Notes under the pieces: generated by a model
Told to the model about the DNA's origin: nothing
The model's input: the letters and a program-made list of their open reading frames with translations, nothing else
Databases searched by the model: none
Made by a program: the position numbers and the translations under genes
Virus record (IMG/VR): IMGVR_UViG_3300003310_000099
Location: 298,295-362,294 of that record
Source: a virus
Lineage: Duplodnaviria > Heunggongvirae > Uroviricota > Caudoviricetes
DNA: 64,000 bases
Strand: one strand, 5' to 3'
Part shown: one piece after another, positions 6,606 through 35,865 of the stretch
Numbering within the stretch: position 1 is the first letter of the stretch
How the letters are laid out: each line of letters begins with the position of its first letter

Positions 6606-6821
6606 ATGGAAAATCCAGTTTATCATGCGTGTCGGGTTGCGTTCAACTGCGGTACGGATGGGGTGCCGTGGCACATGGTATGTCACGCACTGAGGCAGGG
6701 TTTAGGATTGAAGTCTGCAATGACCTATACTCTTACTGAGAAGGACTTTGCAGCATATCCTGATTTACGGGAACTGGTGGATAGATTGGGCCAGACAGGT
6801 TTCGACAGCGACCCTAAGTGA
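6606..6821 (+). CDS. hypothetical protein, 3' end overlaps the tmRNA-like gene
   Basis: ATG just after upstream stop. Confidence 0.45.
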   Translation: MENPVYHACRVAFNCGTDGVPWHMVCHALRQGLGLKSAMTYTLTEKDFAAYPDLRELVDRLGQTGFDSDPK

Positions 6822-6924
6822 CAGGCTTGACCGTGGTAGGTCAGACGCGAAAAGATGCCTCAATTCAAGTAGCGTAGTTTGTCAGCAAGTCGTCTGGAAT
6901 CGGGTTCAAATCCCGACTGGTCCA
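6788..6924 (+). ncRNA. ssrA: Minimal tmRNA (137 nt), predicted tag (A)ASIQVA*
   Basis: 5' GGGCCAG-ACAGGTTTCGAC; acceptor GGGCCAG/CTGGTCC-A with G3.U70; T-arm TCGGG-TTCAAAT-CCCGA; helix 2 TGACAGGCT/AGTTTGTCA; resume context AAGAT-GCC. Confidence 0.8.
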
Positions 6925-7031
6925 CTTAAAGCTTAGCTGTACCAAGTGGTTTGTGTCGGGGAGGTGACTAAGGAAGTTTGCCAGTAACTCTCCAGTACCG
7001 ACATTAAATAAATTCACGGAAACTGGTATGC

Positions 7032-7116
7032 GGACACTGTTCCATACGTCCAGCTGTAACCTGGATGCCATTAAGATGTATGGTGGTGGCGGTGGGTTCG
7101 ATTCCTACAGTGTCCA
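7032..7116 (+). tRNA. tRNA-Tyr(GTA)-like RNA lacking a D-arm
   Basis: Acceptor GGACACT/AGTGTCC-A, anticodon arm TCCAG-CTGTAAC-CTGGA, T-arm GTGGG-TTCGATT-CCTAC; only 10 nt where the D-arm should be. Confidence 0.7.
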
Positions 7117-7143
7117 TTAAATCTTAGCTGTACCAAGGAGTTT

Positions 7144-7359
7144 GTGATGATGAAGGCATTGGCATTGGGCGTGGTGTGGGAGAGTGGCGAGAACAACTCG
7201 ATGGAGGTTGACGCCGACCTTGGTGCGCAGGAAGTTGCGGACCTCATGGAAAATGAATTTGGTTGTGAGTTTGACGACATTTTCATGGTGGTCAATGGGG
7301 ATGGTTGCCCTGATGTGGAGCATCATTGGCGGCGTGGCAAGCACTTTAACAGGGGATAG
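7144..7359 (+). CDS. acidic hypothetical protein
   Basis: GTG at motif+21. Confidence 0.55.
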   Translation: MMMKALALGVVWESGENNSMEVDADLGAQEVADLMENEFGCEFDDIFMVVNGDGCPDVEHHWRRGKHFNRG

Positions 7360-7586
7360 CAATGCAACAGTTTCGGGTTGAATTGGTGGTGACGGTGAAC
7401 ACTCTTGATACGGTGAGTGAGGCGGAAGTGCAGAGGCACTTGGAGGGCTACCTGGAAGATTTCGACATTGGGAATGCTGAGGTTCAGGAGTGTAAGGAAA
7501 TCTAAACCTTAGCTGTACCAAGTCAGTTGTGAGCTAAGCATGACGTGCTAAACATGCCGAGTACCGCCGCGTTAGTGCGGGCATTT

Positions 7587-7658
7587 GCCGCATTCGACTT
7601 CTAGTGAGGTCATCTGGCTTTCACCCAGAGTAGACGGGAGCGTAACCCGTATGCGGCA
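7587..7658 (+). tRNA. tRNA-Glu(TTC) with non-canonical T-loop
   Basis: Acceptor GCCGCAT/ATGCGGC-A, D-stem GACT/GGTC, anticodon arm TCTGG-CTTTCAC-CCAGA, T-arm ACGGG-AGCGTAA-CCCGT; no encoded CCA. Confidence 0.8.
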
Positions 7659-7714
7659 CTAAACCTTAGCTGTACCGAGTGAATTGTTACTTTTCTCTTT
7701 CTAAGGAGTTTGGA

Positions 7715-8158
7715 ATGGGTCGTTACAACAGCAGCAACATCGGTAACATGCTGGAAGAACTCATCAATGATGCGGTGGAAACCGCGATCAACGAGACGGA
7801 TTTCGAGGACAAGATCAACGATACGCTGCCCAATTTCGAGGACATGATCGAAAGGGCAGTCGATAACATCGACATTGACGACAAGGTGAACGACGCGGTT
7901 TCGGAAGCGTTGGACGAGTACGACATTTCCGAAAAGGTGGAGAAGGAAGTTGAGGCGGAACTGACCGCCCACCTCCACGAATACGTTGAGAACGAATTCG
8001 ATTCGTTCTCCAAGACCGACAAGTTCAAGGAACTGGTCATGGCGGAAGTGAATCGGGTATTGGACGCACGGGAAGCGGCGAAGCGTGCGAAGCTGGTGGA
8101 TTACGTCAAGTTTGGGCCGCTTCGTCGGTGGGTTGCGGCTTGGGGTAGCTGGTACTAA
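7715..8158 (+). CDS. highly acidic helical-repeat protein
   Basis: AAGGAG RBS; D/E-rich periodic sequence. Confidence 0.75.
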   Translation: MGRYNSSNIGNMLEELINDAVETAINETDFEDKINDTLPNFEDMIERAVDNIDIDDKVNDAVSEALDEYDISEKVEKEVEAELTAHLHEYVENEFDSFSKTDKFKELVMAEVNRVLDAREAAKRAKLVDYVKFGPLRRWVAAWGSWY

Positions 8159-8249
8159 GAAACAGGGAATCGCCCTCCCTGCTGGAAAGCTTAGCTGTAC
8201 TGAGTTAGTTGTGTCACTTACTTTTCTCTTTTTGAAAGGGTTTCGAGCA

Positions 8250-8558
8250 ATGGTCAAGAACGAACTGGTGCATGTTTGCGGCAACGAGACTTCCGAGGGT
8301 TTCAAGGTGCTTCCGCTGGTGGTTCGCAAGCCGCGTAAGGCCAAGGTGGTGAAGGCCAAGGGCAAGGCGGGTCGTCCGCGAGTGTACAACGGTACGCAAC
8401 GTCGCATCGTGGCGGCGGCGCTGAAGAAGCACGGTCTGACCAAGGGCTTGGAGTTCTTGGCCAAGGAACGCAAGCTCAAGGTGTCGATGACCTTGGCGAT
8501 TGCGGTTGCCAAGGAACACAAGATCGAGTTTCAGCGGGGCCGTCCCAAGGCCGCGTAA
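8250..8558 (+). CDS. basic protein with AT-hook-like GRPR/RGRPK motifs; putative DNA-binding
   Basis: Lys/Arg-rich, ends PKAA, followed by hairpin. Confidence 0.7.
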   Translation: MVKNELVHVCGNETSEGFKVLPLVVRKPRKAKVVKAKGKAGRPRVYNGTQRRIVAAALKKHGLTKGLEFLAKERKLKVSMTLAIAVAKEHKIEFQRGRPKAA

Positions 8559-8623
8559 GGGCTACAAGGGGGGACTGCAACCCCCTTGCCTGCGAGATTT
8601 CTAAATTCTAATTGGGGATTGCC

Positions 8624-8785
8624 ATGAACCGTGAACGCATGATTGACACGATTTGCCTTGACCTGGAGGGTTGGCTTGAGCGTGATCGTCAAGAGTTCCT
8701 GAATCATGTGGAGGAACTGGAGCGGGCTTATCTGAAAACGAAGTCCGACAAGGAACTGACGGAGATTTACGAGGCAAGCGTATAG
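8624..8785 (+). CDS. hypothetical protein
   Basis: 53-aa ORF with GGGG RBS ending at next motif. Confidence 0.55.
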   Translation: MNRERMIDTICLDLEGWLERDRQEFLNHVEELERAYLKTKSDKELTEIYEASV

Positions 8786-8837
8786 CTTAGCTGTACCGAG
8801 TGTGATGTAAGATTTCTTTTTCTCAAAGGGGATTTGA

Positions 8838-9080
8838 ATGGCTCGTCAGGAAACGACTGCTGGTTTCGAGGTTCTGCCGTTGCCGACGTATCGCACTTCT
8901 GCCAAGGAGTTTGCGGAGAAGGCCAAGGTCGATTATGCCGTGGCTCAGGGTTTCATCAAGTTCCTGGTCAGTCAGGGCATTGCGAAGGAAGTGGAGAAGC
9001 GTAAGGTTGTCGGTGCCAAGGGCAAGCCGACGAATGTGTATGAATTGCCGACTGAACTGCGGCTCAAGTTGGCGGCGTAA
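8838..9080 (+). CDS. winged-helix-like DNA-binding protein
   Basis: helix + LVSQGIAKEV + GKPTNVYEL wing; ends KLAA. Confidence 0.7.
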   Translation: MARQETTAGFEVLPLPTYRTSAKEFAEKAKVDYAVAQGFIKFLVSQGIAKEVEKRKVVGAKGKPTNVYELPTELRLKLAA

Positions 9081-9116
9081 GCCAAACAGGGGGGAACAAA
9101 CTGTTCCCCCCTTGAG

Positions 9117-9200
9117 GGCCGCGTGGTGGAATTGGCATACACAAGGGACTTAAAATCCCTCGCCTTTATCGGCTTATGGGTTCGAGTCCCATCGCGGCTA
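9117..9200 (+). tRNA. tRNA-Leu(TAA)
   Basis: Canonical cloverleaf: GTGGAATTGGCATACAC D-arm, AGGGA-CTTAAAA-TCCCT, long variable arm, GGTTCGAGTCC; no encoded CCA. Confidence 0.95.
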
Positions 9201-9239
9201 TTGCTTAGCTGTACTGAGTTCTTAAACGGAGGAATTTCG

Positions 9240-9428
9240 ATGTACGTTCTGAATGGGTGGAATCGGCGTGATGGTGAACTGGAGCAGAATTTCACCAAGA
9301 ATGAGGGTGAGACTGCTTTGGCGATTGCCCGAATTTGGCTGAGTAAGGGTTGGCGTCCTGTCTTGAAGTCTTACGTTGGCGGGATTCATCTCGTTCCTCT
9401 TTCTGTTCCGCTGCGTAAGGCTGCGTAG
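9240..9428 (+). CDS. hypothetical protein
   Basis: GGAGG RBS; ends RKAA. Confidence 0.65.
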   Translation: MYVLNGWNRRDGELEQNFTKNEGETALAIARIWLSKGWRPVLKSYVGGIHLVPLSVPLRKAA

Positions 9429-9483
9429 TGCCAGGGTAATCGCCCACCCTGCATAACCTTAGCTGTACCAAGGAGAGCATGAC

Positions 9484-9678
9484 ATGGAACCGCTGCCGAT
9501 TGGGACTGAGTATGATGGCAACGTAATTGTCGAAGTGGTCGATATGGACCCTTCTGACACTTATCAACCTTTCAGCTATCTCTTGGACAATGGTGAGATT
9601 GTTTGGATTCCTCAAGGGGAGGAACCGCAGTATATTATCACCGAACAAGGCAGGAATGTATTGCGTGCCAATCTGTAA
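9484..9678 (+). CDS. hypothetical protein
   Basis: ORF between two motif copies. Confidence 0.6.
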   Translation: MEPLPIGTEYDGNVIVEVVDMDPSDTYQPFSYLLDNGEIVWIPQGEEPQYIITEQGRNVLRANL

Positions 9679-9837
9679 CCTTAGCTGTACCAAGGAGCTT
9701 GTGATGTGGTGGAAAGTTTTCGCTGACGGCTCCGAGTACGACATTGTTTTCGCCGCAAGTGCCGAAGCAGCGATTGCTTACGCCAAGTGGAAGCATGGGG
9801 AAGCTGTTTGGACTGCACGTCTCTATTAGGAGCAGCA

Positions 9838-10071
9838 ATGCCGAAGATTGATTTCTGTTTTAGTGGTTGGGTGCGTGGCGTCAACGTCACGGAAGCGACG
9901 GACGATGAGGGCAACACGGTTGACGTATCCAAGATGGATGCAGGCGACCTTGCCAGGGACTTGGAGAATGGCAAGCTATTCATTTCCCTTGGCGATTATC
10001 TCTATCAGAATCGCAAAGGTGAAATTGAACTGACCGACTTCGAGGCGACTGACTATCCTCATTTACCTTAG
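9838..10071 (+). CDS. hypothetical protein
   Basis: AGGAG RBS; stop inside motif. Confidence 0.6.
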   Translation: MPKIDFCFSGWVRGVNVTEATDDEGNTVDVSKMDAGDLARDLENGKLFISLGDYLYQNRKGEIELTDFEATDYPHLP

Positions 10072-10207
10072 CTGTACCTAGTTCATTGCCCAATCATTCA
10101 GGAGTCAGTCATGGGTAATCCTGTTGTGACGCCAATGGACATTGCGTGGAACGGTGAAATCATGGAAGATGTTTACGGGTCGATGGAAGAGTATTGGGAG
10201 GAACAAG

Positions 10208-10408
10208 ATGACGTGGCGCAGCCTGATGCGGGAACTCAGTCGAATGAGCGACAACAAGCTGGACGGGCAGGCGATGATCTACCGCCCTTCTAGGGAGTTT
10301 GGGGCGGGTGAAGCCGAAGTTATTGCAATCAAAAGTCTTACGACCATTGACGGCGATATGGCTGAGGAATTCGATTTGGTGGATGGTGATCCAATTGGAT
10401 TAGCTTAG
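10208..10408 (+). CDS. hypothetical protein
   Basis: GAGG RBS; stop inside motif. Confidence 0.55.
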   Translation: MTWRSLMRELSRMSDNKLDGQAMIYRPSREFGAGEAEVIAIKSLTTIDGDMAEEFDLVDGDPIGLA

Positions 10409-10424
10409 CTGTACCAAGGTGGAT

Positions 10425-10688
10425 ATGAAAACACGCAAGTTCAAAATCACTGGAATGCCTTCTGAGCGTGAGTACAATGCTATGCCATTTGGCAGGCAGC
10501 TTGAGTTTGCTCAAAAGCTCAAGGACTTCAAGGCAACGGCCAAGTCAACGTGGCTGAGTCAGAAGCGACAGACGTACCAAAAGGCAATCAAGGAAGCGAT
10601 TGCGTTGCGAGACGTAAAGGAATACTACTGCGAGTTTTACAACGAACCGCAGTGCAAGGACGACGTTTTCGAGTTCTGGTATAAATAA
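10425..10688 (+). CDS. hypothetical protein (leaderless)
   Basis: ATG at motif+21. Confidence 0.65.
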   Translation: MKTRKFKITGMPSEREYNAMPFGRQLEFAQKLKDFKATAKSTWLSQKRQTYQKAIKEAIALRDVKEYYCEFYNEPQCKDDVFEFWYK

Positions 10689-10758
10689 CAAAGGAAACTA
10701 ACTATTAAGACCATACGAGCGCCGCCCGCAAGGGTATGAATTTACCACTTAATTAGAG

Positions 10759-10793
10759 GCAAGAGGGGAAAGTAAACCCTCTTGCTTTTTTTG
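10759..10793 (+). terminator. Rho-independent terminator
   Basis: GCAAGAGGG/CCCTCTTGC stem + T-run. Confidence 0.8.
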
Positions 10794-10864
10794 TCTTTTT
10801 AGAATAAGATTAGCTTAGCTGTACCGAGTGAGTTGTGTCAAGGATACAATTCATGGAGAGAAAC

Positions 10865-11254
10865 ATGACTCAACGCGAAGCGGTTTTTCAGGCGTGTGAG
10901 GATTTGGATGTGCGTTCGAGCGTGCCGACTTTGTTGAATGCGGCTGAGCGGATTTACGGTGGGGACATTACCTATCAGGCAGCGGTGAGTTATCGGTGCG
11001 AGTATCGCAAGCTGCACGGTATCAAGACGGACTGCCGCAAGAACGGGAAGAAGGGCCAATGGCGTCGGGACATGAAGAATGACCATACTGCTTCGTTGAA
11101 GCAGGTGAAGCGGCTGCATCACTTCCTCAAGTTGAAGCGGCCATCGGTGTCAAGTCTGGTGGCTTTGATGGGGGATGGCAGTGAAATGTTCCATAGCGTG
11201 GAACAGATCAAGAACGCGATTGCGGAATTCAACGAACTGCGAAAGGTTGCTTAA
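10865..11254 (+). CDS. hypothetical protein, paralogous to 15080..15547
   Basis: GGAG RBS; shared YxCxxRK...DCR motif. Confidence 0.65.
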   Translation: MTQREAVFQACEDLDVRSSVPTLLNAAERIYGGDITYQAAVSYRCEYRKLHGIKTDCRKNGKKGQWRRDMKNDHTASLKQVKRLHHFLKLKRPSVSSLVALMGDGSEMFHSVEQIKNAIAEFNELRKVA

Positions 11255-11291
11255 CCTTACAGGGTTCGCCCCCTGCTTTGGAGAATTTAAG

Positions 11292-12200
11292 ATGTGCAGT
11301 GTTAAGGGATGCGATAAGCCATGTGCTACAAATCGCAAGATGTGCGAACAGCATTTGGAAATATATCGTAATCGCTCAAAAAAAGTAATACAACAATATA
11401 TTGCAGATGGAAAATGCAGATATTGTCCTCAATTAAGGTTGCCTAATTTCCAAGTATGTGAAATGCACCTTTTGAAAAATAGGGCAAAATGTAAACTTCG
11501 TGGTGAAAAGCTAAGGCAAGAAGTTTTTGACCACTATGGAAAGCAATGTGTCTGTTGCGGCGAGTCAGAAATTAAGTTCTTGACCATCGACCATATCGGG
11601 AACGATGGCAGCACTCATCGTAAGAAGGAAAAGGTTGGGTCGGGAGGCAGTTTCTATGCTTGGTTAAAAAGAAATAATTTTCCTTCTGGCTTTCAAGTTC
11701 TTTGCTGGAATTGCAACGCGGCCAAGGGGCTATACGGTTCTTGCCCACATAACTTAGCTGTACCGAGTAAACATATGAACAATAAAATTCTCGTCATCAT
11801 GCAGGGGCACAGTGGTTCAGGTAAGTCTACCTTGGCGAAACAAATCGCCAAGGTAATTGACGCAGAAATCTTCTCCACGGATGAACTTTTCATTGTAAAC
11901 GGAGTTTATAAATTTGACCCTTCAAAATTAGGATTCTTCCACAAGAAGAACCTTGATAATTGCATTGCAGCAATGAAGAGGGGCGTGAATGTTGTGTGCG
12001 ACAACACAAACATTCGTCAATGGGAAGCTAAAGGGTATGTGGAAGCTGCCCTTGATTTGGGTTTTGAGGTTAAATTCATTCGAGCAACTGGAAACTTTCA
12101 GAACGTGCATGGCGTGCCGAATGACAAGGTTGAGCAGATGCGTGCGCGGCTGGAAGACTTGACGGTGGAAAGTGTCATGGCGAGCAAGAAGCCTTTTTAG
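11292..12200 (+). CDS. HNH endonuclease in frame with an AAA_33/N4BP2-like P-loop polynucleotide kinase (kinase has own start at 11775)
   Basis: CVCCG...LTIDHI...QVLCWNCNAAK; then GHSGSGKST, STD, DNTN, NVHGVP. Confidence 0.85.
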   Translation: MCSVKGCDKPCATNRKMCEQHLEIYRNRSKKVIQQYIADGKCRYCPQLRLPNFQVCEMHLLKNRAKCKLRGEKLRQEVFDHYGKQCVCCGESEIKFLTIDHIGNDGSTHRKKEKVGSGGSFYAWLKRNNFPSGFQVLCWNCNAAKGLYGSCPHNLAVPSKHMNNKILVIMQGHSGSGKSTLAKQIAKVIDAEIFSTDELFIVNGVYKFDPSKLGFFHKKNLDNCIAAMKRGVNVVCDNTNIRQWEAKGYVEAALDLGFEVKFIRATGNFQNVHGVPNDKVEQMRARLEDLTVESVMASKKPF

Positions 12201-12248
12201 CTTAGCTGTACCAAGTCAGTTGTGAGATTACTCTAACTGGAGCGACCG

Positions 12249-12587: not shown

Positions 12588-12700
12588 ACCACATAGGCAT
12601 TTGTGTCCTGTGACCTTCATGGTCTATGGCACAATGTAAGACCTATTCTTGCTTATACCTTAGCTGTACTGAGTTGAGTGTAACTAAACTTGGGGGAGCT

Positions 12701-12844: not shown

Positions 12845-12850
12845 ATCATG

Positions 12851-12982: not shown

Positions 12983-13058
12983 GCCTATACCTTAGCTGTA
13001 CCAAGTCCATTGTAATCGCCCGCGTGTTGCTCCGAGCGAATCGGAGCCTATTTGGAGA

Positions 13059-15600: not shown

Positions 15601-16695
15601 ATGAACACTCAAGAATATCTGCGTAACGGCAAGACGTTGGAAGACTTGACCTCTGAGTTTCACATCAACGTCACGAAGCACGATACGTTGCCGTTGGTCA
15701 TCCTGAACTACGATCAGATTGAGTCGCCTAAGACTCATCCGATTGTGCGGGAATGCCGTGGTTTGGTTCTCAACTCTGAGGACTATTCGCTGGTGGCGCG
15801 GGCTTTCGGACGGTTTTTCAATTGGGGTGAAGTGGCGGATGAGATGCCGTTGTTCGATTGGGATTCGTGCGTAGCTCACGAAAAGGTTGACGGTTCGCTG
15901 GTTCTCATCTACTACTTCGATGGACGTTGGCACGCGAATACGCGAGGCTCGTTCGCTGGTTGGCCGCTGTTCAACGATGAATATGTGGCGAAGTATTACG
16001 GTTTGCCGACGACGTTCAAGTGGTCCGATGGTTTCCTCAAGGCTTTAGGTGTCAATTCCCTTGAAGAGTTGAACCTTGACAAGTCGTTGACGTATGTATG
16101 CGAGTTTTGTTCGCTCTGGAACAAGGTAGTTCGGACGTACAATGAACCGTGTATGTATATGTTGACGCGGTTTGCGGGCATGGAGGAAATCGGGCCGACG
16201 TATCATCCGAACTTCAAGACGCTGGGGGCTTATCCGTTGAAGTCTGTACAGGATGTGCAGTCGTTTGTGATGGATCATCCCGAAGCGACTTTCGAGGGTG
16301 TAGTCGTCAAGGATGATGCGCACCGACGTTGGAAGTTGAAGAATCCGCGATACGTTGCGTTGCACCACATGAAGGGGAACGGTACGGAAATCTTCAAGCC
16401 TAAGAACTTGATGCCGTACATCCTCAAGAATGAGGGCGACGAATTGCTGACGTACTTCCCCGAAGTCAAGGATGTGTTTGCGGAGTACAAGGGCAAGGTT
16501 GACGATGCCTACAACGTCCTAGAAACGCTCTGGAAGGCGAATAAGGATATTCCCGTCCAAAAGGATTTTGCGTTGTCTATCGTGGGCAAGACGCCGTTTA
16601 CTTCAGTTCTGTTCAATCTCCGCAAGCAAGGGGGAACGTTGCGGGATGAATGGATGAAGCACGGGGATGGCATTCTGAAAGTGTTGTTCAAGTAG
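15601..16695 (+). CDS. RNA ligase, T4 Rnl1-like
   Basis: ECRGLVL, RFFNWGE, motif I EKVDGSL, motif IV EGVVV, motif V KLKNPRY; leaderless start. Confidence 0.9.
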   Translation: MNTQEYLRNGKTLEDLTSEFHINVTKHDTLPLVILNYDQIESPKTHPIVRECRGLVLNSEDYSLVARAFGRFFNWGEVADEMPLFDWDSCVAHEKVDGSLVLIYYFDGRWHANTRGSFAGWPLFNDEYVAKYYGLPTTFKWSDGFLKALGVNSLEELNLDKSLTYVCEFCSLWNKVVRTYNEPCMYMLTRFAGMEEIGPTYHPNFKTLGAYPLKSVQDVQSFVMDHPEATFEGVVVKDDAHRRWKLKNPRYVALHHMKGNGTEIFKPKNLMPYILKNEGDELLTYFPEVKDVFAEYKGKVDDAYNVLETLWKANKDIPVQKDFALSIVGKTPFTSVLFNLRKQGGTLRDEWMKHGDGILKVLFK

Positions 16696-27169: not shown

Positions 27170-27985
27170 TTAGCACTGGCCTTCAACCCATTTAAAAATC
27201 TCTATACCCTTATCAATTTCCAGTTTATACCATTCATTCTTTTTGTCTTGGAAGACCGCCGCAGGTTGTAATATGCTTTTCAAGAGATTTTCTGCCTTTG
27301 TGCGGTTATCAAATACTTTTGATTTATAATGTCTTTTATAATCTCTAAAAGGCGCGCCAGTTTGATAACTATCTACTCTTTCCTCATAATCAAGTGACTT
27401 ACCAACTTTAAAATATCCTGGCCATGCAGGATTAGTTAATAAATATAAATATCCTTTTTTAATACCACACTGTTTATTTTTCAATGTTGCCAGTATTGCA
27501 TCTCGTTCTTTTCTTATCTCATCTAATTCTTGGTCAAATTCTGTTATTTGTTTAGGAACTATTTTACTAGCAATAAAATTTCGGTCTTCGGCAGATAGAG
27601 GTAATACTACAGGCCGATCATAACAATTACTTACGTTTAATTTTGCACCCTTTCCAGTATCGTAAACCACTAACTTACCTTGGAATAATTTTATAGATGG
27701 AGATGCATCTGGATAGAGTTTTCGGAATTCCTCGACAGCAGGCACCATTGTATTCAAAAATGTCTGGTAGTCTATGCCGATAGATAACAAAGTATGCTTC
27801 ATTCTTCTCCAGCATTCCTTAACTCTACCTAGCACAGTTGAATAAAGTTGGCGGTAATTTTTCCTGTGGCATTCAAGACAAATACTGTCTCGGTCATAAC
27901 GGTGTCCATATCCAGTTGATTTTTTGAATTCATTGAGTAATTTTTCGTCCCCGCAATTTCTACATTTTATTTTTTCAGTAATCAT
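27170..27985 (-). CDS. T5orf172 / GIY-YIG-like nuclease domain protein with N-terminal zinc finger
   Basis: GYLYLLTNPAWPGYFKVGKS...RVDSYQTGAPFRDY...NEWY. Confidence 0.8.
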   Translation of the reverse strand: MITEKIKCRNCGDEKLLNEFKKSTGYGHRYDRDSICLECHRKNYRQLYSTVLGRVKECWRRMKHTLLSIGIDYQTFLNTMVPAVEEFRKLYPDASPSIKLFQGKLVVYDTGKGAKLNVSNCYDRPVVLPLSAEDRNFIASKIVPKQITEFDQELDEIRKERDAILATLKNKQCGIKKGYLYLLTNPAWPGYFKVGKSLDYEERVDSYQTGAPFRDYKRHYKSKVFDNRTKAENLLKSILQPAAVFQDKKNEWYKLEIDKGIEIFKWVEGQC

Positions 27986-28070: not shown

Positions 28071-29681
28071 ATGTTATTTAGTCAATGGTTAGAGACGGAG
28101 CTTAGTCAAGCTGAGCGAGAAATGCTTGGCAAGCCCAAAGTAGGTAAATCTGGCAAGCCGAGTGCATATAATTATCCGAGTGAGGAGGAATGGGGCAAGC
28201 TTCGTCCTTACTTGGTTAATAGAAGTAAGGCATCTAATCCAAATTTAGATCAAGATTTAACGGCATATACTCCTGGTGAAACTTTAACCATATTAAACAA
28301 TCCTAAGATTAGGGCATATCATGACAGGGTATCGCATTTCAGGGTGCCCGACAATTTTGATACGATAGTATTGGTGCCATGTGCGAAGAGTAAGCCGTGG
28401 GGTGCTGGGTGTAAGAGTAATTTTTACAAAGCGTATCATCAATTGATGGGTGATCCTGAGATGGGTAAAGTCTACATGGCGACTATATCGGAGCCATTGG
28501 GGGTAGTCCCTAGTTCGGATTGGGAGAATTTTCCTCAGTATGACAATCCTGGGTTATTTGATGATACGGCGATGCAGAGTAGTTTAATGACGAAGGATTG
28601 GGGTAAGACGCCTGTGGGGTCAAAGAGGATAATGCCATTTGATGTTAATTCGTACAATCAATCTATAGATGTATTGTCTAAGGTGATAGCATCATTTATG
28701 AAGGTGAATAGTGACAAGAGGTTTGTGGCATTTGTGGACGATCCGAGTGGGAAGTTGACGACGCATGGGGACATGTTGAATCGGGCATCAAGTTTAAGTG
28801 GGATACCGATTACTCGTTTTTCGAAGAAGCCAAAGACAGGTAGGGAGAAGGGGACGGTATATCCATACATGAAGAGTAATATTAGGTTTAAAGAGTGGTT
28901 GATTGAGCAGACGTTTAACGAATTTGAAAGATGGTTGCAGGTGAACAATATTGATATGGGGGATTTAATAAAGCAATTACAGAGTAAGGAACCAGACGGG
29001 CATGGGGGTAATGCGGTATTTTACAAGATACCAGGGACTCAATTTGGGGTAAAGATTATTAAGGGCACGAAGGGTATTGGTCAGTTGAGGGCGGCGGATG
29101 ATGAATTGGGGGATGAGAACTACGGGCAGGCGATTGCGCATTATGGTTCAAATATACAAATATTAAAATTGCAATCTGGGATTCCTGCGGGTCATCCTTA
29201 CAAATATGATAAGGATGATATGGAAGGTGCGAAGGCAAGGTATTTGGCAAATTTGGAGTCGGCTGCGGGGATGCCAGTGTCTGAATATGAGCGTTTATTT
29301 AGGAGTATAAAGAAGTTAAATGATAGGGGTTGGGTAATTGATCCGAGCAAGAGTGGGAATTTATTGATAGACAGGGGGCGGTTTAATTTGGTGGACATTA
29401 ATAAGCATGAGGGGGATTACAGGAACAATGCGGGTGAGGTGGTGAGTATGTTGATAGACAATTTTCATTTTGGCAAGTATTTTACGAATGACATGAGGGT
29501 AAAGGGGTTGGCGAAGCAGATAATAGAGAAGGCGGATGAGGCGGCGGCGAGGGTAGGATTTCCTTACAACAAGGAATCATCGACTTCGCAATATTCGCAT
29601 CAACATGCATATGGTCCAGTGGAGGAGCCTTGGAAAGCAGTGGTGAATAATGATAAGGAATTTGGTTGGGATCATGTATAA
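28071..29681 (+). CDS. DUF5591/ArcS-like domain fused to a protein-kinase-like domain
   Basis: VLVPCAKSKPW, SEPLGVVP, QYD; then GHGGNAVFY, VKI, DPSKSGNLLI, LVD. Confidence 0.6.
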   Translation: MLFSQWLETELSQAEREMLGKPKVGKSGKPSAYNYPSEEEWGKLRPYLVNRSKASNPNLDQDLTAYTPGETLTILNNPKIRAYHDRVSHFRVPDNFDTIVLVPCAKSKPWGAGCKSNFYKAYHQLMGDPEMGKVYMATISEPLGVVPSSDWENFPQYDNPGLFDDTAMQSSLMTKDWGKTPVGSKRIMPFDVNSYNQSIDVLSKVIASFMKVNSDKRFVAFVDDPSGKLTTHGDMLNRASSLSGIPITRFSKKPKTGREKGTVYPYMKSNIRFKEWLIEQTFNEFERWLQVNNIDMGDLIKQLQSKEPDGHGGNAVFYKIPGTQFGVKIIKGTKGIGQLRAADDELGDENYGQAIAHYGSNIQILKLQSGIPAGHPYKYDKDDMEGAKARYLANLESAAGMPVSEYERLFRSIKKLNDRGWVIDPSKSGNLLIDRGRFNLVDINKHEGDYRNNAGEVVSMLIDNFHFGKYFTNDMRVKGLAKQIIEKADEAAARVGFPYNKESSTSQYSHQHAYGPVEEPWKAVVNNDKEFGWDHV

Positions 29682-29737
29682 AATTGGTAGAAGTTAATAA
29701 AAACGGGATTTAGGTTAGGTAGGAGATATATAGGGTT

Positions 29738-30370: not shown

Positions 30371-30383
30371 GGATATATAGGAT

Positions 30384-30578
30384 ATGATTACATTTACTAA
30401 TTGGTTAAAGATGAAGGAGGCATCTGCTTTTACGAGGAGTAGGACTGCTGCTGCTTTAGGTACAGGCCCAACGATTCCAGATGCACAGATTAATAGTCGT
30501 AGTACAGCAAGACCTTGGGAGGCCAAGGCTATCAAGAAGAGAAACAAGAAAAAGTGCAAACCAAAGAAGAAAATGTGA
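30384..30578 (+). CDS. small basic protein
   Basis: MITFTNWLKMKE N-terminus. Confidence 0.6.
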   Translation: MITFTNWLKMKEASAFTRSRTAAALGTGPTIPDAQINSRSTARPWEAKAIKKRNKKKCKPKKKM

Positions 30579-30595
30579 GGCTGATGGTTTATTGG

Positions 30596-30844
30596 TTAGT
30601 TTAGCCAATCCTCTGATTTATAATTTCCTAATTGGTCACTTTGTTCTAGTATTTCGATAGTGGAGAAATACAGATCATCATCACTATTAGAATCAAAGCC
30701 AGCTTCACTTACCATGACAATGGAACTTAAAGATGAAACTGGCTTATTTTCTAGCATTTTAAAAGCATCAATTGCTGCTTTTTTTGGAGTAGGTCGATCA
30801 ATAATTTGTTTAAAGTCGCCTGAAATAACATAATATTTTGCCAT
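30596..30844 (-). CDS. hypothetical protein
   Basis: MAKYYVISG...VSEAGF. Confidence 0.7.
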   Translation of the reverse strand: MAKYYVISGDFKQIIDRPTPKKAAIDAFKMLENKPVSSLSSIVMVSEAGFDSNSDDDLYFSTIEILEQSDQLGNYKSEDWLN

Positions 30845-31119
30845 TATTTATCATTCTCTGCTAATTGGTTGAAATGTGCTGCACCCATTTGGAGCAGTTC
30901 TGCGAGTTCGCTTTCTGGGATATTACGATAATTGATATCCCAACCTTTGTGTAAGGGGCTTTGTTCACCTTTTGCTTCTATATTAGAGTGGAAGATTACG
31001 CCTGCGAAGGTTGATCTTTCGATAATTTCTTCGATTAATTCTTTGGTTGAGTAAAATTCCAGCGCATTTGATCTTCGGACAATTTCATCGACTAATTCTT
31101 TGGTGGTATATTCGTTCAT
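30844..31119 (-). CDS. hypothetical protein with duplicated STKELxxEIxxR motif
   Basis: AGGAG RBS. Confidence 0.7.
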   Translation of the reverse strand: MNEYTTKELVDEIVRRSNALEFYSTKELIEEIIERSTFAGVIFHSNIEAKGEQSPLHKGWDINYRNIPESELAELLQMGAAHFNQLAENDK

Positions 31120-31128
31120 TATAAACTC

Positions 31129-31740
31129 CTATGCAAAATTATGTTCAACAGTTATTTTCAAGCTAATTTCTGGCAAGTGTATATGGTTACACAGTTTATG
31201 TTTTTTGGCTTCTTTTGCATTAAGGAACCATTCAGCGTGGCTTTTTTGGTGGATTAGGTCTAAGAAGTAGTTGGGTGGTTGGCCACAGTTTTTGGCTAGT
31301 AGTGAGAAAATATGTTTGTTAAGGCGTTCGGTTTGTCCTACATCGGCTTTAAGTTCTTCGATTTTGCCGTAGGTGAAGTTTGAAACGTCATGAAGCATGA
31401 TGGTAGCATGTTCAGACATAAATCGCAAGCCATGATTTCCGAACCCAAAGAGAATTGCGCCTGCGGACATTGCCTTGGATTCGCAGATAGTGGCAACTGG
31501 CAATTTGCAATTTTGGATTTCTGAAATCATGGACAGTAGTGCATAAACTTGTCCACCGTAGGAATCTACGACGATGGGTACGACGGTTTGTCCTGAATTG
31601 CAGGCTTTATTGATATCTTCTGAGAAATGTTTTGAGCCATCTTCGTCAAATTTGGTGATTCTAATTACGATAGGGAGGTCAATAAGGTCTTCAGCTGCTT
31701 TTATTTTAATTCTGGGATCGACTTCGATTCGTCTATGCAT
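31129..31740 (-). CDS. clpP: ClpP-family protease proteolytic subunit
   Basis: VDSYGGQV, catalytic AMSAGA, RFMSEHATIMLHD, WFLNAKEA. Confidence 0.85.
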   Translation of the reverse strand: MHRRIEVDPRIKIKAAEDLIDLPIVIRITKFDEDGSKHFSEDINKACNSGQTVVPIVVDSYGGQVYALLSMISEIQNCKLPVATICESKAMSAGAILFGFGNHGLRFMSEHATIMLHDVSNFTYGKIEELKADVGQTERLNKHIFSLLAKNCGQPPNYFLDLIHQKSHAEWFLNAKEAKKHKLCNHIHLPEISLKITVEHNFA

Positions 31741-32336
31741 TGTATTTCCTTTGCCAGCCAAATAATTCTATTTTTACGGATATAGGTAATACTACAATTG
31801 GTTATTTTACCTATACTTGATATACAATGAGTAATCTGAATAACATTTTGAATAAAATCCGTATGTGTAATCAGTATAGACTTTTCTGGGATGGAGTCAA
31901 GGGTTTTTACAAGTCTGTCGCAGAAATCTATTTCATTTTCTTGACGTTTGCTGAGGTTGTCATATGGAGCAAAATGTACTTTACAATTTTGTTCAATGAT
32001 TGCAGAAGTTTCTGCACATCTTTTATAGGGGGAATGGAGTCCCTGGAAGTTTTGGAGGTGCATGGTGGATAAAAAGTTTGCGACCTGGAGTGCTTGTTGG
32101 CGTCCACGCTCAGTGAGTGGGCCATTTTCTTGTTCTGTAGCTTCGCCATGACGTAGGATGATAATTTCTTTGAGGTAGATTACTTTATCTTCATCGGTGA
32201 TGAATTTATGGTTTTTGCAATCGAGGAAGCCAGAGATTAGTTTTCCATCTTTTTCGGTTTCATTTAGCTTACCGAAGGCTTCGCCGTGATGAGTGCCAGT
32301 AACAATTTTATCATCCGTTAAAATAGCTGGGACCAT
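31701..32336 (-). CDS. histidine phosphatase family protein
   Basis: LRHGE, LTERGRQQA, SPYKRCAET, ITH, NCS motifs. Confidence 0.85.
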   Translation of the reverse strand: MVPAILTDDKIVTGTHHGEAFGKLNETEKDGKLISGFLDCKNHKFITDEDKVIYLKEIIILRHGEATEQENGPLTERGRQQALQVANFLSTMHLQNFQGLHSPYKRCAETSAIIEQNCKVHFAPYDNLSKRQENEIDFCDRLVKTLDSIPEKSILITHTDFIQNVIQITHCISSIGKITNCSITYIRKNRIIWLAKEIQCIDESKSIPELK

Positions 32337-32357
32337 AGTAAAGCCTCCATTCTCTAT

Positions 32358-33185
32358 TTATTTCTCGGAAGATTTTTTATATGAAGTAATTACCTTGCCG
32401 ACATAATCCATTGCTTTGTTTGCGTTATACTTTAGGAGTATATCATATGGGTCGCCCATGCTGAAGATGATTGGCGGCTCAAAGCGGAACATGTTTTTAT
32501 TGAAATAAGGTGGTAGACCACGCTTGTAATGAATAAGGTGTTTCAGTTCATTATCCATCAAGGTATTTTCTATACCAACTGTCCCATAATACGTTAAATG
32601 TCCGTAATATTCAAGCATTGTTAATGCCCAGGCAGTTTTTTCCGCATCTTGCCAGCCTGGATGGGTTTTGGCTAGATAATCAGCTAGTTCAAGGACTCTT
32701 TTTACAAATTCATCTGGTAATTTTTCGAAACAGATTGTGGCTCCTAACGGGAGCCACAATTCATCTTCAATTTTTTTTGCATCCTTCACTGTTTTTACAA
32801 AATCTTCTGAACGACTTTTCTGTAATGTGAATTCTGGGTCCATCTGGAAGGTAATGTCGATAGACCTATTTTCTATAGGTTTCACCAGAATAGTATCAGG
32901 ATGAATGAGTGTGAAAGGTGGTTTGATTAAGCCTTTAGTGATGGCAACATAGAGTCCATAGACACGATTAAAATAAGGACAGCCTTTTTCCTTACCGATA
33001 TTGTCATGCACAAAGACATGTTTATGGGAACGAAGATTAACTGGTTCCGAATAGATTGGTTCGGTACTATCTGCAAGTCCTACGACAAGGGAATCTTGCA
33101 GGTTGTGCATTTTGAAACTTTCTATAAGGAGTTCCAATTGCCAGTGATGATAGGCTATGTTTTCTGCGCTTACGAAATACTGCAT
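32358..33185 (-). CDS. putative glycosyltransferase (HPAT/serine galactosyltransferase-like)
   Basis: YHHWQ, YFNR, HPDTILVKP, WxxE, IHY motifs in expected order. Confidence 0.5.
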   Translation of the reverse strand: MQYFVSAENIAYHHWQLELLIESFKMHNLQDSLVVGLADSTEPIYSEPVNLRSHKHVFVHDNIGKEKGCPYFNRVYGLYVAITKGLIKPPFTLIHPDTILVKPIENRSIDITFQMDPEFTLQKSRSEDFVKTVKDAKKIEDELWLPLGATICFEKLPDEFVKRVLELADYLAKTHPGWQDAEKTAWALTMLEYYGHLTYYGTVGIENTLMDNELKHLIHYKRGLPPYFNKNMFRFEPPIIFSMGDPYDILLKYNANKAMDYVGKVITSYKKSSEK

Positions 33186-33186
33186 T

Positions 33187-33492
33187 TTAATTCTCTATAA
33201 AGTTTTCTAAGAACAACCGATATACTTTACTATATGCTCGGCCCCAATTTGGTCCATGAACGTCAACATCCTTATCCCATGCAACGGCGTGGGCGACTTC
33301 ATGAATCATAACATCAATTGAGTAATTTTCTGACAAAATTCTGTTTATTTTAACGAGGAACACGTCATTCTTAATTTCACATTGGCCATCCAATGAAGCT
33401 TTCAACCTAACTCTTCTGATAACGATAGGTTTTTCAGCTAGATTGCTATTTTGGTAAAACTTTGCTACACGCCGATAGAGTTCGTAGTTCAA
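33187..33492 (-). CDS. SprT-like zinc metallopeptidase
   Basis: HEVAH...HGPNW. Confidence 0.75.
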   Translation of the reverse strand: MNYELYRRVAKFYQNSNLAEKPIVIRRVRLKASLDGQCEIKNDVFLVKINRILSENYSIDVMIHEVAHAVAWDKDVDVHGPNWGRAYSKVYRLFLENFIEN

Positions 33493-33527
33493 TGAACCCC
33501 CTGAAGTTGGATGTATGATTATTTAGC

Positions 33528-34178
33528 TTAAACTGAATAGTTTTTGTTACTACGAACGTCGTGGACTAATACAGCCTTTAAATTTGGCCAACTTTCCTTT
33601 AAATTTCTACCAAGTTCCAAAAATTTATTAACGTGGTCTGCTCTATCGTCAAATATCTCTACTGTTTCTATTTCTGGGGACATTAAACGCTTAATAATCA
33701 CGAAAGCCTTGTAATCAAACGTATCATTAGATTTGGGGTATTCTGGGTGTTTTGTTAAATCTTTTTGTCCTTTGAAGTAATATTCATCTGCATGGACGCC
33801 ATAATGGGCAAGAATATCTTTGACACTATCGCCCAAAGCGGCATGTCTGCCTGTCATGATAACTGTATGGGTTTGTGGATCATCGTGGAATGATTTTAAA
33901 GCGTTTGCCACATTTTGGTTAAGTTTTTCTGGAGTGCGGTCGAATTTTAGGGTTTCAGGTCTTCCCCACCATCCTGTTCTTCTGAATTTAGGATCGAATC
34001 CATGTTGAACGGCGGTTTCCTTATCTTTAATCATCCAGGGTTTGCCTGTAGTTTTTTCATATTCTGGGATACCCTGTTCAGGCGTTGGTGTATACACAAG
34101 CGTATCATCAAAGTCTATAATGGCGATACGTTTAATGCCTGTTGGGGCACTTTCCATAAATTGTTTAAAACTCAGCAT
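33528..34178 (-). CDS. HAD phosphatase, Swiss-Army-Knife RNA-repair-like
   Basis: DFDDTLVYTP, WW, MTGR, FDDRADH. Confidence 0.8.
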   Translation of the reverse strand: MLSFKQFMESAPTGIKRIAIIDFDDTLVYTPTPEQGIPEYEKTTGKPWMIKDKETAVQHGFDPKFRRTGWWGRPETLKFDRTPEKLNQNVANALKSFHDDPQTHTVIMTGRHAALGDSVKDILAHYGVHADEYYFKGQKDLTKHPEYPKSNDTFDYKAFVIIKRLMSPEIETVEIFDDRADHVNKFLELGRNLKESWPNLKAVLVHDVRSNKNYSV

Positions 34179-34347
34179 TTTAATTTATACCAAATATAAA
34201 ACCCTACAGCACTGGCTAGGCAACTCCAGTAATCGACATAACCTCCGTACCAAAACATACCTACGCCGATAGCGATGCTATTGACTAAGGCTAAAGTAAA
34301 AGCAATCCATGCTACAAAATTTCTAACTTCATGTTTGGGGCACATAT

Positions 34348-35865
34348 TTACTCTTGTTTGTTATTAAAAGACTTACGGAACTTATCAGTTTCAATATTCT
34401 TAATAGCACTACCGAACTCTTCACCTTGAGGGATTCTGCCGCCAAGGTGTTGTACGATTTCTGGGTTTACTACTCTTCTATCGCCATCCTGAACATAACC
34501 TCTTGTCTGCATATCGTGAGATATGAACTTGTTCATAACGTCGTCTGGAAGTTTATTCATCCTACCCCATTGCTTTGCCAAGCTTGGGACGATGCCTGTT
34601 TTGTGGAAATTTTTCTTCATATCATAGAACTTATCGAAGAACGCTTGTGGATTTTGTTCATGCGAAGAAACCCACTTAGCAAGTTCGATCAAGTGTGTGA
34701 TATCACGAATTTCGTCATTGGTCCAAGTGCCTTGACGAAGTGCTTTTTCAATTTTAAATGTTGGGTTGTTTCTCAACAGCCAAGCGATGGCTAATCTCTT
34801 TTCTTTTTTATCACTGAAGTCTTCAGGTGCATCTAGTTTGAATTCCAAGTCTGGGAATACAGTATTCAGCATACCCAATTCTTTGAATAGTTTTACATAG
34901 TGTGCTGGATCAACGTCTGGATGTTGTAGACCCTTCAAGAATTCATCCCTAATACGTTCACGGCTTACAGATGGCAAGTCCTTAATATCTGTAATTGCTT
35001 CCTTTACGTCATCTGGAATTTTGGTGTTCTTACCATGAGAAGCTACGAAGCGAAGGTAACGCATAGCTCTTAGCTGATCTTCTTCCAATCTTTCTCTTGC
35101 ATTGCCGACGAATTTTACTTCTCCGCTTCTGATGTGGTGAGCGCCACCGTGAGGATCAATAAGTTTAGCGTTTGCACCATCTGCGGTTGTAAGTGGGATA
35201 TACATAGAGTTCATGGTGAAGTCACGGCGTTGTGCATCATCATCGAGTCCAGCGAATTCCATGCGATCTGGTGTTCTCCCGTCACCGCTCTTGGAGTCTT
35301 TTCTGAAAGTTGCGATTTCAAATTCTTCGCCGTTGACTCTAGCGCCGATTACGAATTCTTTACCACTACGGTCCCAGCCCTTGGCATAGAAAATCTTGCT
35401 TTTATTACCAGCTTCTGGGTGTTTTTCATATTTCTTATCAATAGGCGCATTCTTTCCAGTCTGTGGTTTAGTTTCAGCGAAACCTGCACTTCTTAGAATT
35501 AATCTGATTTCATCTGGGGTTGCGTCTGTAGCCAGGTCATAGTCTTTAGGAGTTTTGCCTTTAAGATGATCCCTTACTGCACCGCCGACTAAGTATAGAC
35601 CTTTCTTTTTCAATTTAGGTGTGGTTTCACCTTTAGATGGGTCCATAGTTGTTAATTTTTGTGGATAGCCATCTGGACCAGGCAGACTAACTTGGCCACT
35701 ATCAAGGAATGCCTTGATGATGGTTCTTAGATTAGGATGACGTTCAGCGTCAACTGTAAATGGCTTGAAGTCACTGTCATCACCGAGTTTAACTTCGGAT
35801 GGTGCCTTCTTTCCACCTTCTACATTTTCTTTCAAGCTCAAGTATTCTAAAAAAGTTTTTCTCAT
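34348..35865 (-). CDS. cca: CCA-adding tRNA nucleotidyltransferase (class II)
   Basis: LVGGAVRD, DYDLAT, EIATFR, DAQRRDFTMN, EDQLRAMRYLRF, VSRERIRDEF. Confidence 0.9.
   Translation of the reverse strand: MRKTFLEYLSLKENVEGGKKAPSEVKLGDDSDFKPFTVDAERHPNLRTIIKAFLDSGQVSLPGPDGYPQKLTTMDPSKGETTPKLKKKGLYLVGGAVRDHLKGKTPKDYDLATDATPDEIRLILRSAGFAETKPQTGKNAPIDKKYEKHPEAGNKSKIFYAKGWDRSGKEFVIGARVNGEEFEIATFRKDSKSGDGRTPDRMEFAGLDDDAQRRDFTMNSMYIPLTTADGANAKLIDPHGGAHHIRSGEVKFVGNARERLEEDQLRAMRYLRFVASHGKNTKIPDDVKEAITDIKDLPSVSRERIRDEFLKGLQHPDVDPAHYVKLFKELGMLNTVFPDLEFKLDAPEDFSDKKEKRLAIAWLLRNNPTFKIEKALRQGTWTNDEIRDITHLIELAKWVSSHEQNPQAFFDKFYDMKKNFHKTGIVPSLAKQWGRMNKLPDDVMNKFISHDMQTRGYVQDGDRRVVNPEIVQHLGGRIPQGEEFGSAIKNIETDKFRKSFNNKQE

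Follow-up and report, generated by a model that had tools for sequence, protein, structure and literature searches.

The stretch of viral DNA considered here (the window), 64,000 nucleotides (nt) long and corresponding to bases 298,295–362,294 of a single viral contig of 373,404 bp (41% GC, completeness rated 98%), encodes a miniature transfer-messenger RNA (mini-tmRNA), tRNAs and tRNA-like elements, a set of RNA-repair enzymes, a ClpP-like protease and a series of small proteins ending in Ala-Ala. The original prediction, made from the letters of the window, had joined these parts into a single counter-defence module that mends or decoys cleaved tRNAs, frees stalled ribosomes and controls protein degradation. 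All of the parts it named are present at or near the places it gave them, as found with Rfam, ARAGORN, Pfam and PHROG, and all fall inside 29 kb. Nevertheless, they probably represent three toolkits that a huge phage carries side by side, and not a single wired circuit. A toolkit for tRNA supply and mending is well supported, its domain assignments and gene linkage being directly observed. A mini-tmRNA forms a conserved structured RNA with a plausible role in the rescue of stalled ribosomes, and a proteolysis arm consisting of phage ClpX, the ClpP-like protein and the Ala-Ala-tailed proteins is likewise plausible. What stands of the single module is the linked set of kinase, HAD phosphatase, Rnl1 ligase and CCA-adding enzyme, whereas the distribution of the parts over two unlike blocks, the loss of the tmRNA in the relative G001 and the lack of conservation of the tag ASIQVA speak against it. 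Positions are window coordinates unless marked 'genome'.

RNA-repair enzymes and tRNAs in two gene blocks

Positions 4,000–27,000 of the window form a composition island of 48–58% GC, beyond which (past 27 kb) the GC content is 33–44%. The first of two gene blocks, GC-rich, motif-driven and on the plus strand, contains the mini-tmRNA, three tRNAs, the kinase and Rnl1, dispersed among approximately 55 small genes. Its motif, CTTAGCTGTACYRAG, is a putative promoter with 61 copies in the island, 59 of them on the plus strand; one copy stands ahead of nearly each small gene and immediately past each small RNA, and the whole genome holds 111 copies on the plus strand. The second block, on the minus strand, motif-less and with 38% GC, runs from 36,725 down to 30,596 as one gene cluster comprising the CCA enzyme, the HAD_SAK phosphatase, a SprT-like protein, a 275-amino-acid (aa) unknown protein, a histidine phosphatase, the ClpP-like protein and two small open reading frames (ORFs). 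The SprT-like protein and the histidine phosphatase were not among the parts originally predicted. A scan of 27–37 kb for sigma70 promoters and terminators gave a result no different from that of shuffled sequence. The only samples listed for the stretch were small-share DNA contigs from metagenomes of bioreactors and biofilms, with no RNA data set among them.

Four enzymes encoded in these blocks make up the candidate repair kit (Table 1). The kinase carries the Walker A motif GSGKST and matches PF13671 (AAA_33; 1.9e-12), phrog_2071 (2.3e-23) and phrog_505, a polynucleotide kinase family (7e-9). Its AlphaFold2 (AF2) model, with a predicted local distance difference test (pLDDT) score of 90.6, is closest in fold to PSTK, mammalian PNKP, C. 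thermocellum Pnkp and T4 Pnkp, at template-modelling (TM) scores of 0.6–0.77. The phosphatase is encoded by a separate gene, and its alignment retains an intact DxDxT motif (DFDDT) together with the later HAD motifs. Rnl1 matches phrog_562 (7e-41) across aa 1–350 and displays motifs I (KVDG), IV (EGVV) and V (KLK). Searches of the PDB with phmmer gave no matches for Rnl1 or the HAD protein, and the ORF directly upstream of Rnl1 matched nothing in Pfam or PHROG. An Rnl2-like RNA ligase is encoded far outside the window (genome 194818–195336; PF09414, 79.6 bits), so that the phage has two RNA ligases. The nucleotidyltransferase aligns with CCA-adding enzymes of the PDB (3.5e-23) through the motifs GGAVRD..DYD, RRDFTMN and EDQLR, with a 50-aa insert in the head domain. 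Since no CCA is encoded by the mini-tmRNA or by at least 56 of the 58 tRNA genes, plain maturation would need this enzyme as well. Judged from sequence and gene linkage, the four proteins are supported as one functionally linked set for the healing and sealing of tRNA ends; their likely substrates and a counter-defence role are suggested by the T4 Pnkp/Rnl1–PrrC paradigm.

Comparison with relatives bears on this linkage: the kit recurs in four of them, and its enzymes occur together wherever a relative's sequence covers the region. Beside the genome studied here (G000; 373 kb, 98% complete), the three listed here are G001 (390 kb, 98%), W01 (LR756511.1; 595 kb) and G003 (341 kb, 68%), whose CCA enzymes are 90%, 78% and 72% identical in aa sequence to the present one. 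All four repair enzymes are present in each relative, with the kinase and Rnl1 in the GC-rich block (3/3) and the order of the minus-strand cluster maintained (3/3). The spacing between kinase and Rnl1 is 280 nt in W01 and approximately 720 nt in G003, where they adjoin tRNA-Tyr and tRNA-Glu. Each relative has its own version of the motif: CTTAGTTGTACC in G001, AGCTGTAC in W01 and CAATTGTACC in G003. The block tRNAs are Tyr-like, Glu-like and Leu in the present genome, Glu and Leu in G001, Leu in W01, and Tyr and Glu in G003. The present genome carries the mini-tmRNA without a full-length tmRNA, G001 carries neither type, and W01 and G003 carry both.

Furthermore, scanning IMG/VR with the HAD alignment yielded 80 viral HAD_SAK loci, 26 of which have a CCA-type gene within 10 kb. 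The order CCA, HAD, SprT, (275-aa gene), ClpP-like persists in contigs down to 29–35% HAD identity. It is always accompanied by a 430-aa flanking gene, itself without matches in Pfam or PHROG, so that the association of the ClpP-like gene with CCA–HAD indicates synteny within a lineage more than a functional tie. In L075, an unrelated phage on a 162-kb contig, the order is CCA, six tRNAs, kinase, HAD, Rnl1 and more tRNAs over approximately 18 kb in total; all four repair enzymes lie inside 9 kb, within tRNA arrays, and no ClpP-like gene is present in the 20.5-kb locus. A co-occurrence check across relatives, which had been suggested along with the single module, separates its parts: the repair enzymes are co-distributed, the mini-tmRNA is not, and the link to the ClpP-like gene is lineage-bound.

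ARAGORN reports 58 tRNA genes genome-wide, 56 of which lie at genome 27–172 kb, distant from the window. Within the block, tRNA-Leu(UAA) has conserved counterparts in the corresponding block of G001 and of W01. The tRNA-Glu(UUC)-like gene is homologous to the tRNA-Glu of G001 and G003, and its anticodon stem differs from theirs by compensatory changes; the 'tRNA-???' call of ARAGORN at 7566–7659 is this gene plus a hairpin upstream. The tRNA-Tyr(GUA)-like element is statistically weak (25.2 bits, E 0.1 against the tRNA-Sec model). A canonical tRNA-Tyr(GUA) occupies the equivalent place of the block in G003, and ARAGORN finds no other tRNA-Tyr in the present genome. The claim that the small RNAs lack an encoded CCA holds for all block RNAs (mini-tmRNA, Leu, Glu-like and Tyr-like) and extends over the genome, where at most 2 of the 58 tRNA genes have one. 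Directly past the ARAGORN gene end, 54 of the 58 tRNA genes have a T, and most of these genes end in C; this uniform 3' trailer may mark a common processing rule. In addition, two tRNA-like elements detected with RF00023 at genome 24758–24884 (127 nt, 29 bits) and 82583–82660 (78 nt, 22 bits), the latter immediately after tRNA-Arg(CCU), have G3:U70 acceptor stems and canonical T-arms and are missed by ARAGORN.

The mini-tmRNA, Ala-Ala tails and a possible proteolysis arm

The mini-tmRNA consists of a tRNA-like domain with G3:U70 and a T-arm, helix 2, one hairpin and a short loop GCC..UAG that reads ASIQVA*; an anticodon arm is absent. Relative to RF00023, pseudoknots (PK) 2–4 are absent, 269 model positions being replaced by 37 nt, and a single hairpin precedes the tag loop. 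ARAGORN gives no call for it. A first pattern scan of viral sequences returned mainly tandem tRNAs, and a tighter pattern applied to viral and metagenome contigs succeeded, recovering seven distinct homologues of 137–140 nt from different samples. Their RNAalifold consensus contains, besides the acceptor stem and T-arm, a helix 2 made of two parts, a single hairpin, and a loop of approximately 23 nt closed by a 4-bp stem. Compensatory changes occur in 13 of the 35 consensus pairs, and G3:U70 is invariant in 7/7. Ahead of the putative resume codon, AAAAGAUGCC is kept in five of the seven members, and the sequence beyond it varies, including 1-nt indels. The candidate explanation of an ssrA attachment-site fragment was rejected because the tRNA-like domain has its two halves and the helices show covariation. 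A search of the 98%-complete genome with PF01668 found no SmpB, which the host would therefore have to supply. The full-length tmRNAs that W01 and G003 possess in addition to the mini-tmRNA encode the tags ANPEFAMAA and ATPYEYALAA. A part in ribosome rescue is plausible for the mini-tmRNA, and the addition of a degradation tag is doubtful. A gene for a well-conserved DUF932 protein (4638–5627, plus strand; 62–87% identity) stands first in the early block of each of the four phages, and the mini-tmRNA, where carried, lies approximately 0.3–1.2 kb downstream of it.

Proteins with Ala-Ala tails, the last of the predicted parts and the most unusual feature, are far more frequent in the block than chance would give. 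Seven of its 52 motif-headed genes (~13%) end in this way, against 0.4 expected from the Ala frequency of the same ORFs, and 1/53 of the motif-headed genes outside the block does so. In greedy ORF sets the counts are 6/57 here, 9/64 in G001, 6/56 in W01 and 11/110 in G003 (P ~1e-10 to 3e-6), with Ala-Ala the commonest C-terminal dipeptide in the blocks of all four phages; opposite-strand ORF controls gave 0/67 and 1/120. That GC content or the motif generates the tails as a side effect is ruled out by the Ala-frequency expectation, the near-empty controls and the scarcity outside the block. The tails ..KLAA, ..RKAA and ..NLAA are retained in orthologues of 44–69% identity, and the Ala codons used vary between genes, so that selection looks to act at the protein level. 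None of the seven proteins matched Pfam or PHROG. A stretch examined in a further genome, G004, showed neither a repeated motif nor Ala-Ala tails and is probably not the equivalent of the early block. Recognition of ssrA-like C-terminal Ala-Ala by ClpX is established, and by analogy ClpX may recognise these tails in the present phage.

The ClpX encoded by the phage is, on its sequence, bona fide. It has a zinc finger and the GYVG, RKH and IGF loops, all three of which are conserved in three phages, and it is conserved in G001 (85%) and W01 (72%), with a C-terminus ..EAA in all three. Upstream of its gene is a near-consensus sigma70-type promoter, TTGACA-N16-TATAGT, instead of the phage motif. 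The ClpP-like protein matches ClpP of the PDB (1.4e-12); Ser99 and His124 are invariant, and the third residue of the triad is Glu177 here and Asp in W01.

Altogether, these features suggest how the three toolkits might work. Early-block genes would supply replacement tRNAs (Leu-UAA, Glu-UUC-like and Tyr-GUA-like). On broken tRNAs, the small kinase of the polynucleotide-kinase (PNK) clade would phosphorylate 5'-OH ends, the stand-alone HAD_SAK phosphatase would take off the 3'- or 2',3'-phosphate, Rnl1 would seal the break, and the class II CCA enzyme would restore or, more simply, make the 3' CCA. Phage ClpX would most likely unfold Ala-Ala-ended proteins for degradation by host ClpP or by the divergent ClpP-like protease of the phage; the ~13% of small early-block proteins that bear tails would thereby be removed at times set by the phage. 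The 140-nt minimal tmRNA, relying on host alanyl-tRNA synthetase (AlaRS), SmpB and CCA addition, probably frees stalled ribosomes. A more far-reaching proposal, which we put forward only tentatively, is that the phage clade runs its own degradation timer, in which conserved Ala-Ala degrons on about one in eight small block proteins, a phage ClpX under a host-type promoter and a divergent phage ClpP would be joined by phage tmRNAs (full-length with LAA/MAA tags, or 140-nt) feeding stalled products in.

Table 1. Features of the window, with the phage ClpX gene (strand + or -; tails given as C-terminal residues)
Feature	Position	Strand	Remarks
Mini-tmRNA	6788-6927	+	140 nt; RF00023 49.8 bits vs gathering score 47
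tRNA-Tyr(GUA)-like element	7032-7116	+	7-bp acceptor stem, canonical T-arm, anticodon loop CUGUAAC, without normal D-arm
tRNA-Glu(UUC)-like gene	7587-7659	+	73 nt; D-loop GG and T-loop UUC lost
Ala-Ala-tailed small protein, ..RPKAA	8250-8558	+	Paralogue of 8838-9080; followed by a GC hairpin
Ala-Ala-tailed small protein, ..KLAA	8838-9080	+	Tail kept in G001
tRNA-Leu(UAA)	9117-9200	+	Canonical, 54.9 bits; ARAGORN and Rfam; without encoded CCA
Ala-Ala-tailed small protein, ..RKAA	9240-9428	+	Tail kept in G001 and W01
HNH-endonuclease-like ORF part	11175-11774	+	phrog_2255 1.1e-7
Stand-alone P-loop kinase, polynucleotide/tRNA-kinase clade	11775-12200	+	141 aa; own motif at 11753
Ala-Ala-tailed small protein, ..RQAA	13365-13592	+	
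Rnl1-family RNA ligase	15601-16695	+	364 aa; PF09511 1.2e-12, above its cut-off
Ala-Ala-tailed small protein, ..SKAA	21961-22317	+	G001 orthologue ends ..SVA
Ala-Ala-tailed protein, ..NLAA	22971-23354	+	Tail kept in G001 and W01
Ala-Ala-tailed small protein, ..PIAA	25633-25911	+	
Divergent ClpP-superfamily serine protease	31129-31761	-	210 aa; PF00574 3e-20, 73 bits vs cut-off 20
Histidine-phosphatase-superfamily protein, SixA/PGAM-like	31701-32336	-	PF00300 3.2e-11; TIGR00249 3.5e-8, below cut-off
275-aa unknown protein	32358-33185	-	Gene missing from W01 and G003
SprT-like zinc metallopeptidase domain protein	33187-33492	-	101 aa; PF10263 6.4e-7
Stand-alone HAD phosphatase, 'Swiss Army Knife' RNA-repair family (HAD_SAK_1)	33528-34178	-	PF10307 4.3e-15; phrog_415 3.4e-6
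Class II tRNA nucleotidyltransferase, CCA-adding type	34348-35865	-	PF01743 2.5e-26; phrog_2244 3.4e-48; PF12627 also matches
ClpX	genome 155,108-156,412		NCBIfam equivalog 560.8 bits vs cut-off 359

Several neighbouring genes deserve mention. The HNH-like part upstream of the kinase reads through in frame, free of stops, across the promoter motif into the kinase gene (ORF 11175–12200). It had no tblastn matches in G001 or W01, and the kinase of the relatives lacks it; from its sequence it resembles a homing-endonuclease insertion that may also yield a fusion protein. The AF2 model of the 275-aa protein (pLDDT 55) matched glycogenin and glycosyltransferase family GT6 in Foldseek at TM ~0.44, possibly, at low confidence, indicating a GT-A glycosyltransferase fold. 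A T5orf172/endonuclease-VII-like gene (27170–27985, minus strand), probably a mobile nuclease gene, lies in a 33% GC pocket exactly on the edge of the GC-rich block. A 536-aa protein (28071–29681, plus strand) contains a DUF5591/archaeosine-synthase-alpha-like segment at aa 73–158 and may be an enzyme of 7-deazaguanine modification of tRNA or DNA; it had no phmmer matches in the PDB, and its gene region has a strong G-over-C skew reaching +0.45. Finally, a 1052-aa protein (45820–48978, plus strand) has a LAGLIDADG homing-endonuclease segment at aa 557–735, which may be an intein or an inserted endonuclease within a large gene of the structural module.

Competing explanations

Several results weigh against the readings given above and are set here beside the rival explanations. 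The repair-kit genes are divided over two blocks unlike in strand, GC content and promoter type, the motif heads none of the genes of the minus-strand cluster, and approximately 45 unrelated small genes separate the parts of one block from those of the other. In addition, the closest relative, G001 (98% complete), lacks the mini-tmRNA and keeps everything else. These points make it decidedly improbable that one integrated, co-inherited counter-defence circuit functionally couples ClpP degradation with tmRNA rescue and with repaired or decoy tRNAs, as do the unconserved tag of the mini-tmRNA, the restriction of the ClpP-like gene's association with CCA–HAD to the lineage sharing the 430-aa gene, and the compact repair cluster of L075 without a ClpP-like gene. 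Such a circuit would fit the proximity of all parts within 29 kb, the need of tRNAs and mini-tmRNA alike for the CCA enzyme, the combination, in relatives with a full-length tmRNA, of MAA/LAA tags with ClpX and a ClpP-like gene, and the synteny of CCA–HAD with the ClpP-like gene down to ~30% identity. The repair set itself also has its weak points. Rnl1 falls under its NCBIfam equivalog cut-off (38 vs 242 bits), as does the CCA enzyme (NF009814, 143 vs 290 bits), for which the CCA models nonetheless score best, at 143 bits against 114 bits for PcnB models. Searches of the genome found no 2H or RtcB enzymes, so that the opening of a 2',3'-cyclic phosphate would rest on the HAD or the histidine phosphatase. 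It is conceivable, then, that the CCA enzyme, kinase, HAD and Rnl1 merely service the 58 CCA-less phage tRNAs or other RNA transactions (processing, or tail-fibre attachment in the manner of T4 gp63) and have no anti-nuclease role. This agrees with the 56 of 58 tRNA genes without CCA, with the name of the ligase's best PHROG ('RNA ligase and tail fiber protein attachment catalyst'), with the position of the L075 enzymes within tRNA arrays and with the lack of any known host defence system for this uncultured phage. Housekeeping alone is nonetheless unlikely, since the early-block tRNAs (Glu-UUC, Leu-UAA and Tyr-GUA) belong to what we take to be wobble-modified classes that known anticodon nucleases target, CCA synthesis requires no 5'-kinase, 3'-phosphatase or ligase, and that trio is the signature of mending breaks with 5'-OH and 3'-phosphate ends (T4 Pnkp/Rnl1; Iyer et al., 2021, PMC7824862).

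The proteolysis arm faces a comparable challenge, namely that the ClpP-like protein is a prohead (head-maturation) protease and that the Ala-Ala tails have some other cause. Its best PHROG matches are head maturation proteases (phrog_94, 4.5e-22). On NCBIfam ClpP models it reaches 52–68 bits, with cut-offs of 249–308, and it scores nearly equally (Clp_rel_HeadMat, 52 bits) on the model 'head maturation protease, ClpP-related'; its N-terminus does not align with ClpP. Bacillus phage homologues (~30% identity) are annotated as either ClpP or head protease, and the tail and baseplate genes, on the plus strand, come after the minus-strand cluster and start a few kb from the ClpP-like gene. Searches of the genome for a T4-type or HK97-type (S77, S78) prohead protease and for the capsid protein were blank, which would suit such a role; Pfam often fails to recognise the divergent prohead proteases of jumbo phages, however, and the blank searches prove little and do not help to settle what the protein does. 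ClpX, moreover, was not found in the incomplete records G003–G007. Against a head protease stand the length of 210 aa without a scaffold or capsid fusion, a location between the phosphatase and small unknown genes and not beside portal, scaffold or capsid genes, the higher score on the NCBIfam ClpP subfamily (68 bits) and the retention in the genome of a full ClpX with its ClpP-docking IGF loop; on this evidence the prohead role has a low probability. Rather more weight, though still the smaller share, belongs to the idea that the mini-tmRNA is not a working tmRNA, being either a host ssrA relic or attachment-site fragment, or a tRNA-like domain put to a non-tagging use. It passes the gathering score by just 2.8 bits and leaves ARAGORN silent, and the genome has two more G3:U70 tRNA-like elements elsewhere. 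The tag frames starting from GCC read ASIQVA*, ASTQVA*, ASIK*, AYIKVAC* and AN*, with no in-frame stop in two members, and W01 and G003 carry a full-length tmRNA as well. In turn, the tRNA-like domain is complete in its two halves, unlike that of a 3' attachment-site fragment. Covariation in 13 pairs, seen over seven sequences from different samples, supports helix 2, the hairpin and the stem that closes the tag loop, and AAAAGAUGCC is kept in most members ahead of the putative resume codon. In published work, a hairpin could reportedly take the place of PK1 in tmRNA, and single strands that of PK2–4.

Comparison with known systems

The closest known counterpart of the repair kit is T4 Pnkp with Rnl1, the answer of that phage to the anticodon nuclease PrrC. 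Both systems combine a P-loop 5'-kinase of the PNK clade, a DxDxT HAD 3'-phosphatase and an Rnl1 ligase with motifs I, IV and V. In T4, kinase and phosphatase are fused, whereas here their genes lie approximately 22 kb apart on opposite strands, and the Pnkp-fused HAD is replaced by a stand-alone member of the HAD_SAK family; the identity of the phage proteins is too low for a phmmer match to the T4 entries of the PDB. By analogy, this kit adds one more case, with split genes, to the ways in which phages are known to answer defences that cut tRNAs. Jumbo phages have been described as carrying sets of Rnl1/Rnl2, polynucleotide kinase, stand-alone SAK HAD phosphatase, CCA-adding enzyme and many tRNAs, with ClpP and SprT-like peptidases mentioned separately (Iyer et al., 2021; PMC7824862). 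The RNA-repair inventory of the present phage is identical, including the Rnl2-like ligase elsewhere in its genome. It differs in that the CCA enzyme and HAD_SAK share a conserved block with the SprT-like and ClpP-like genes across one lineage, while the kinase and Rnl1 neighbour odd tRNAs and the mini-tmRNA in an early block of their own, rich in promoters. The stand-alone HAD_SAK phosphatase, furthermore, emerges from the present survey as widely linked to CCA-adding enzymes in phages. Phage tRNAs have been presented as replacements that escape tRNA-targeting defences (van den Berg et al., 2023; PMC10264068). The extra tRNA copies of the early-type block, two with altered loops and next to repair enzymes, resemble them; they differ in having changes in the D- and T-loops (the elbow) or loss of the D-arm, and not changes in the anticodon loop.

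An ARAGORN-based survey by Al-Shayeb et al. (2020; PMC7162821) recorded tmRNA, SmpB and CCA-adding enzymes in huge phages; ARAGORN misses the mini-tmRNA. With the tmRNAs of bacteria and huge phages, the mini-tmRNA shares the tRNA-like domain with G3:U70, the GGUUUCGAC 5' element, helix 2 and a short ORF past an A-rich stretch. It departs from the bacterial tmRNA–SmpB system in its length of 137–140 nt, the lack of PK2–4 and a hairpin instead of PK1, and from the bacterial ssrA tag in that its own is 2–7 residues long, unconserved and ends in VA instead of LAA, with no phage SmpB. A structurally conserved family of ~140-nt tmRNAs goes beyond the descriptions found, as do class-wide Ala-Ala tails in phages with their own ClpX. 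The family lies near the minimal design suggested by tmRNA mutagenesis and offers a natural test of what a tmRNA requires.

Natural C-terminal ClpX degrons of the ssrA-like 'LAA' class are well known, and ClpXP controls phage proteins such as lambda O and those of Mu. The present tails likewise end in Ala-Ala, often after Leu or a basic residue, and coexist with a ClpX that has RKH, GYVG and IGF loops. They differ in being class-wide, on ~10–14% of the genes of one block in four phages, and in that the unfoldase is phage-encoded; their role as degrons is putative. If the tails are degrons, they would give a huge phage a simple mechanism for clearing early proteins on schedule and would account for the Clp genes in such phages.

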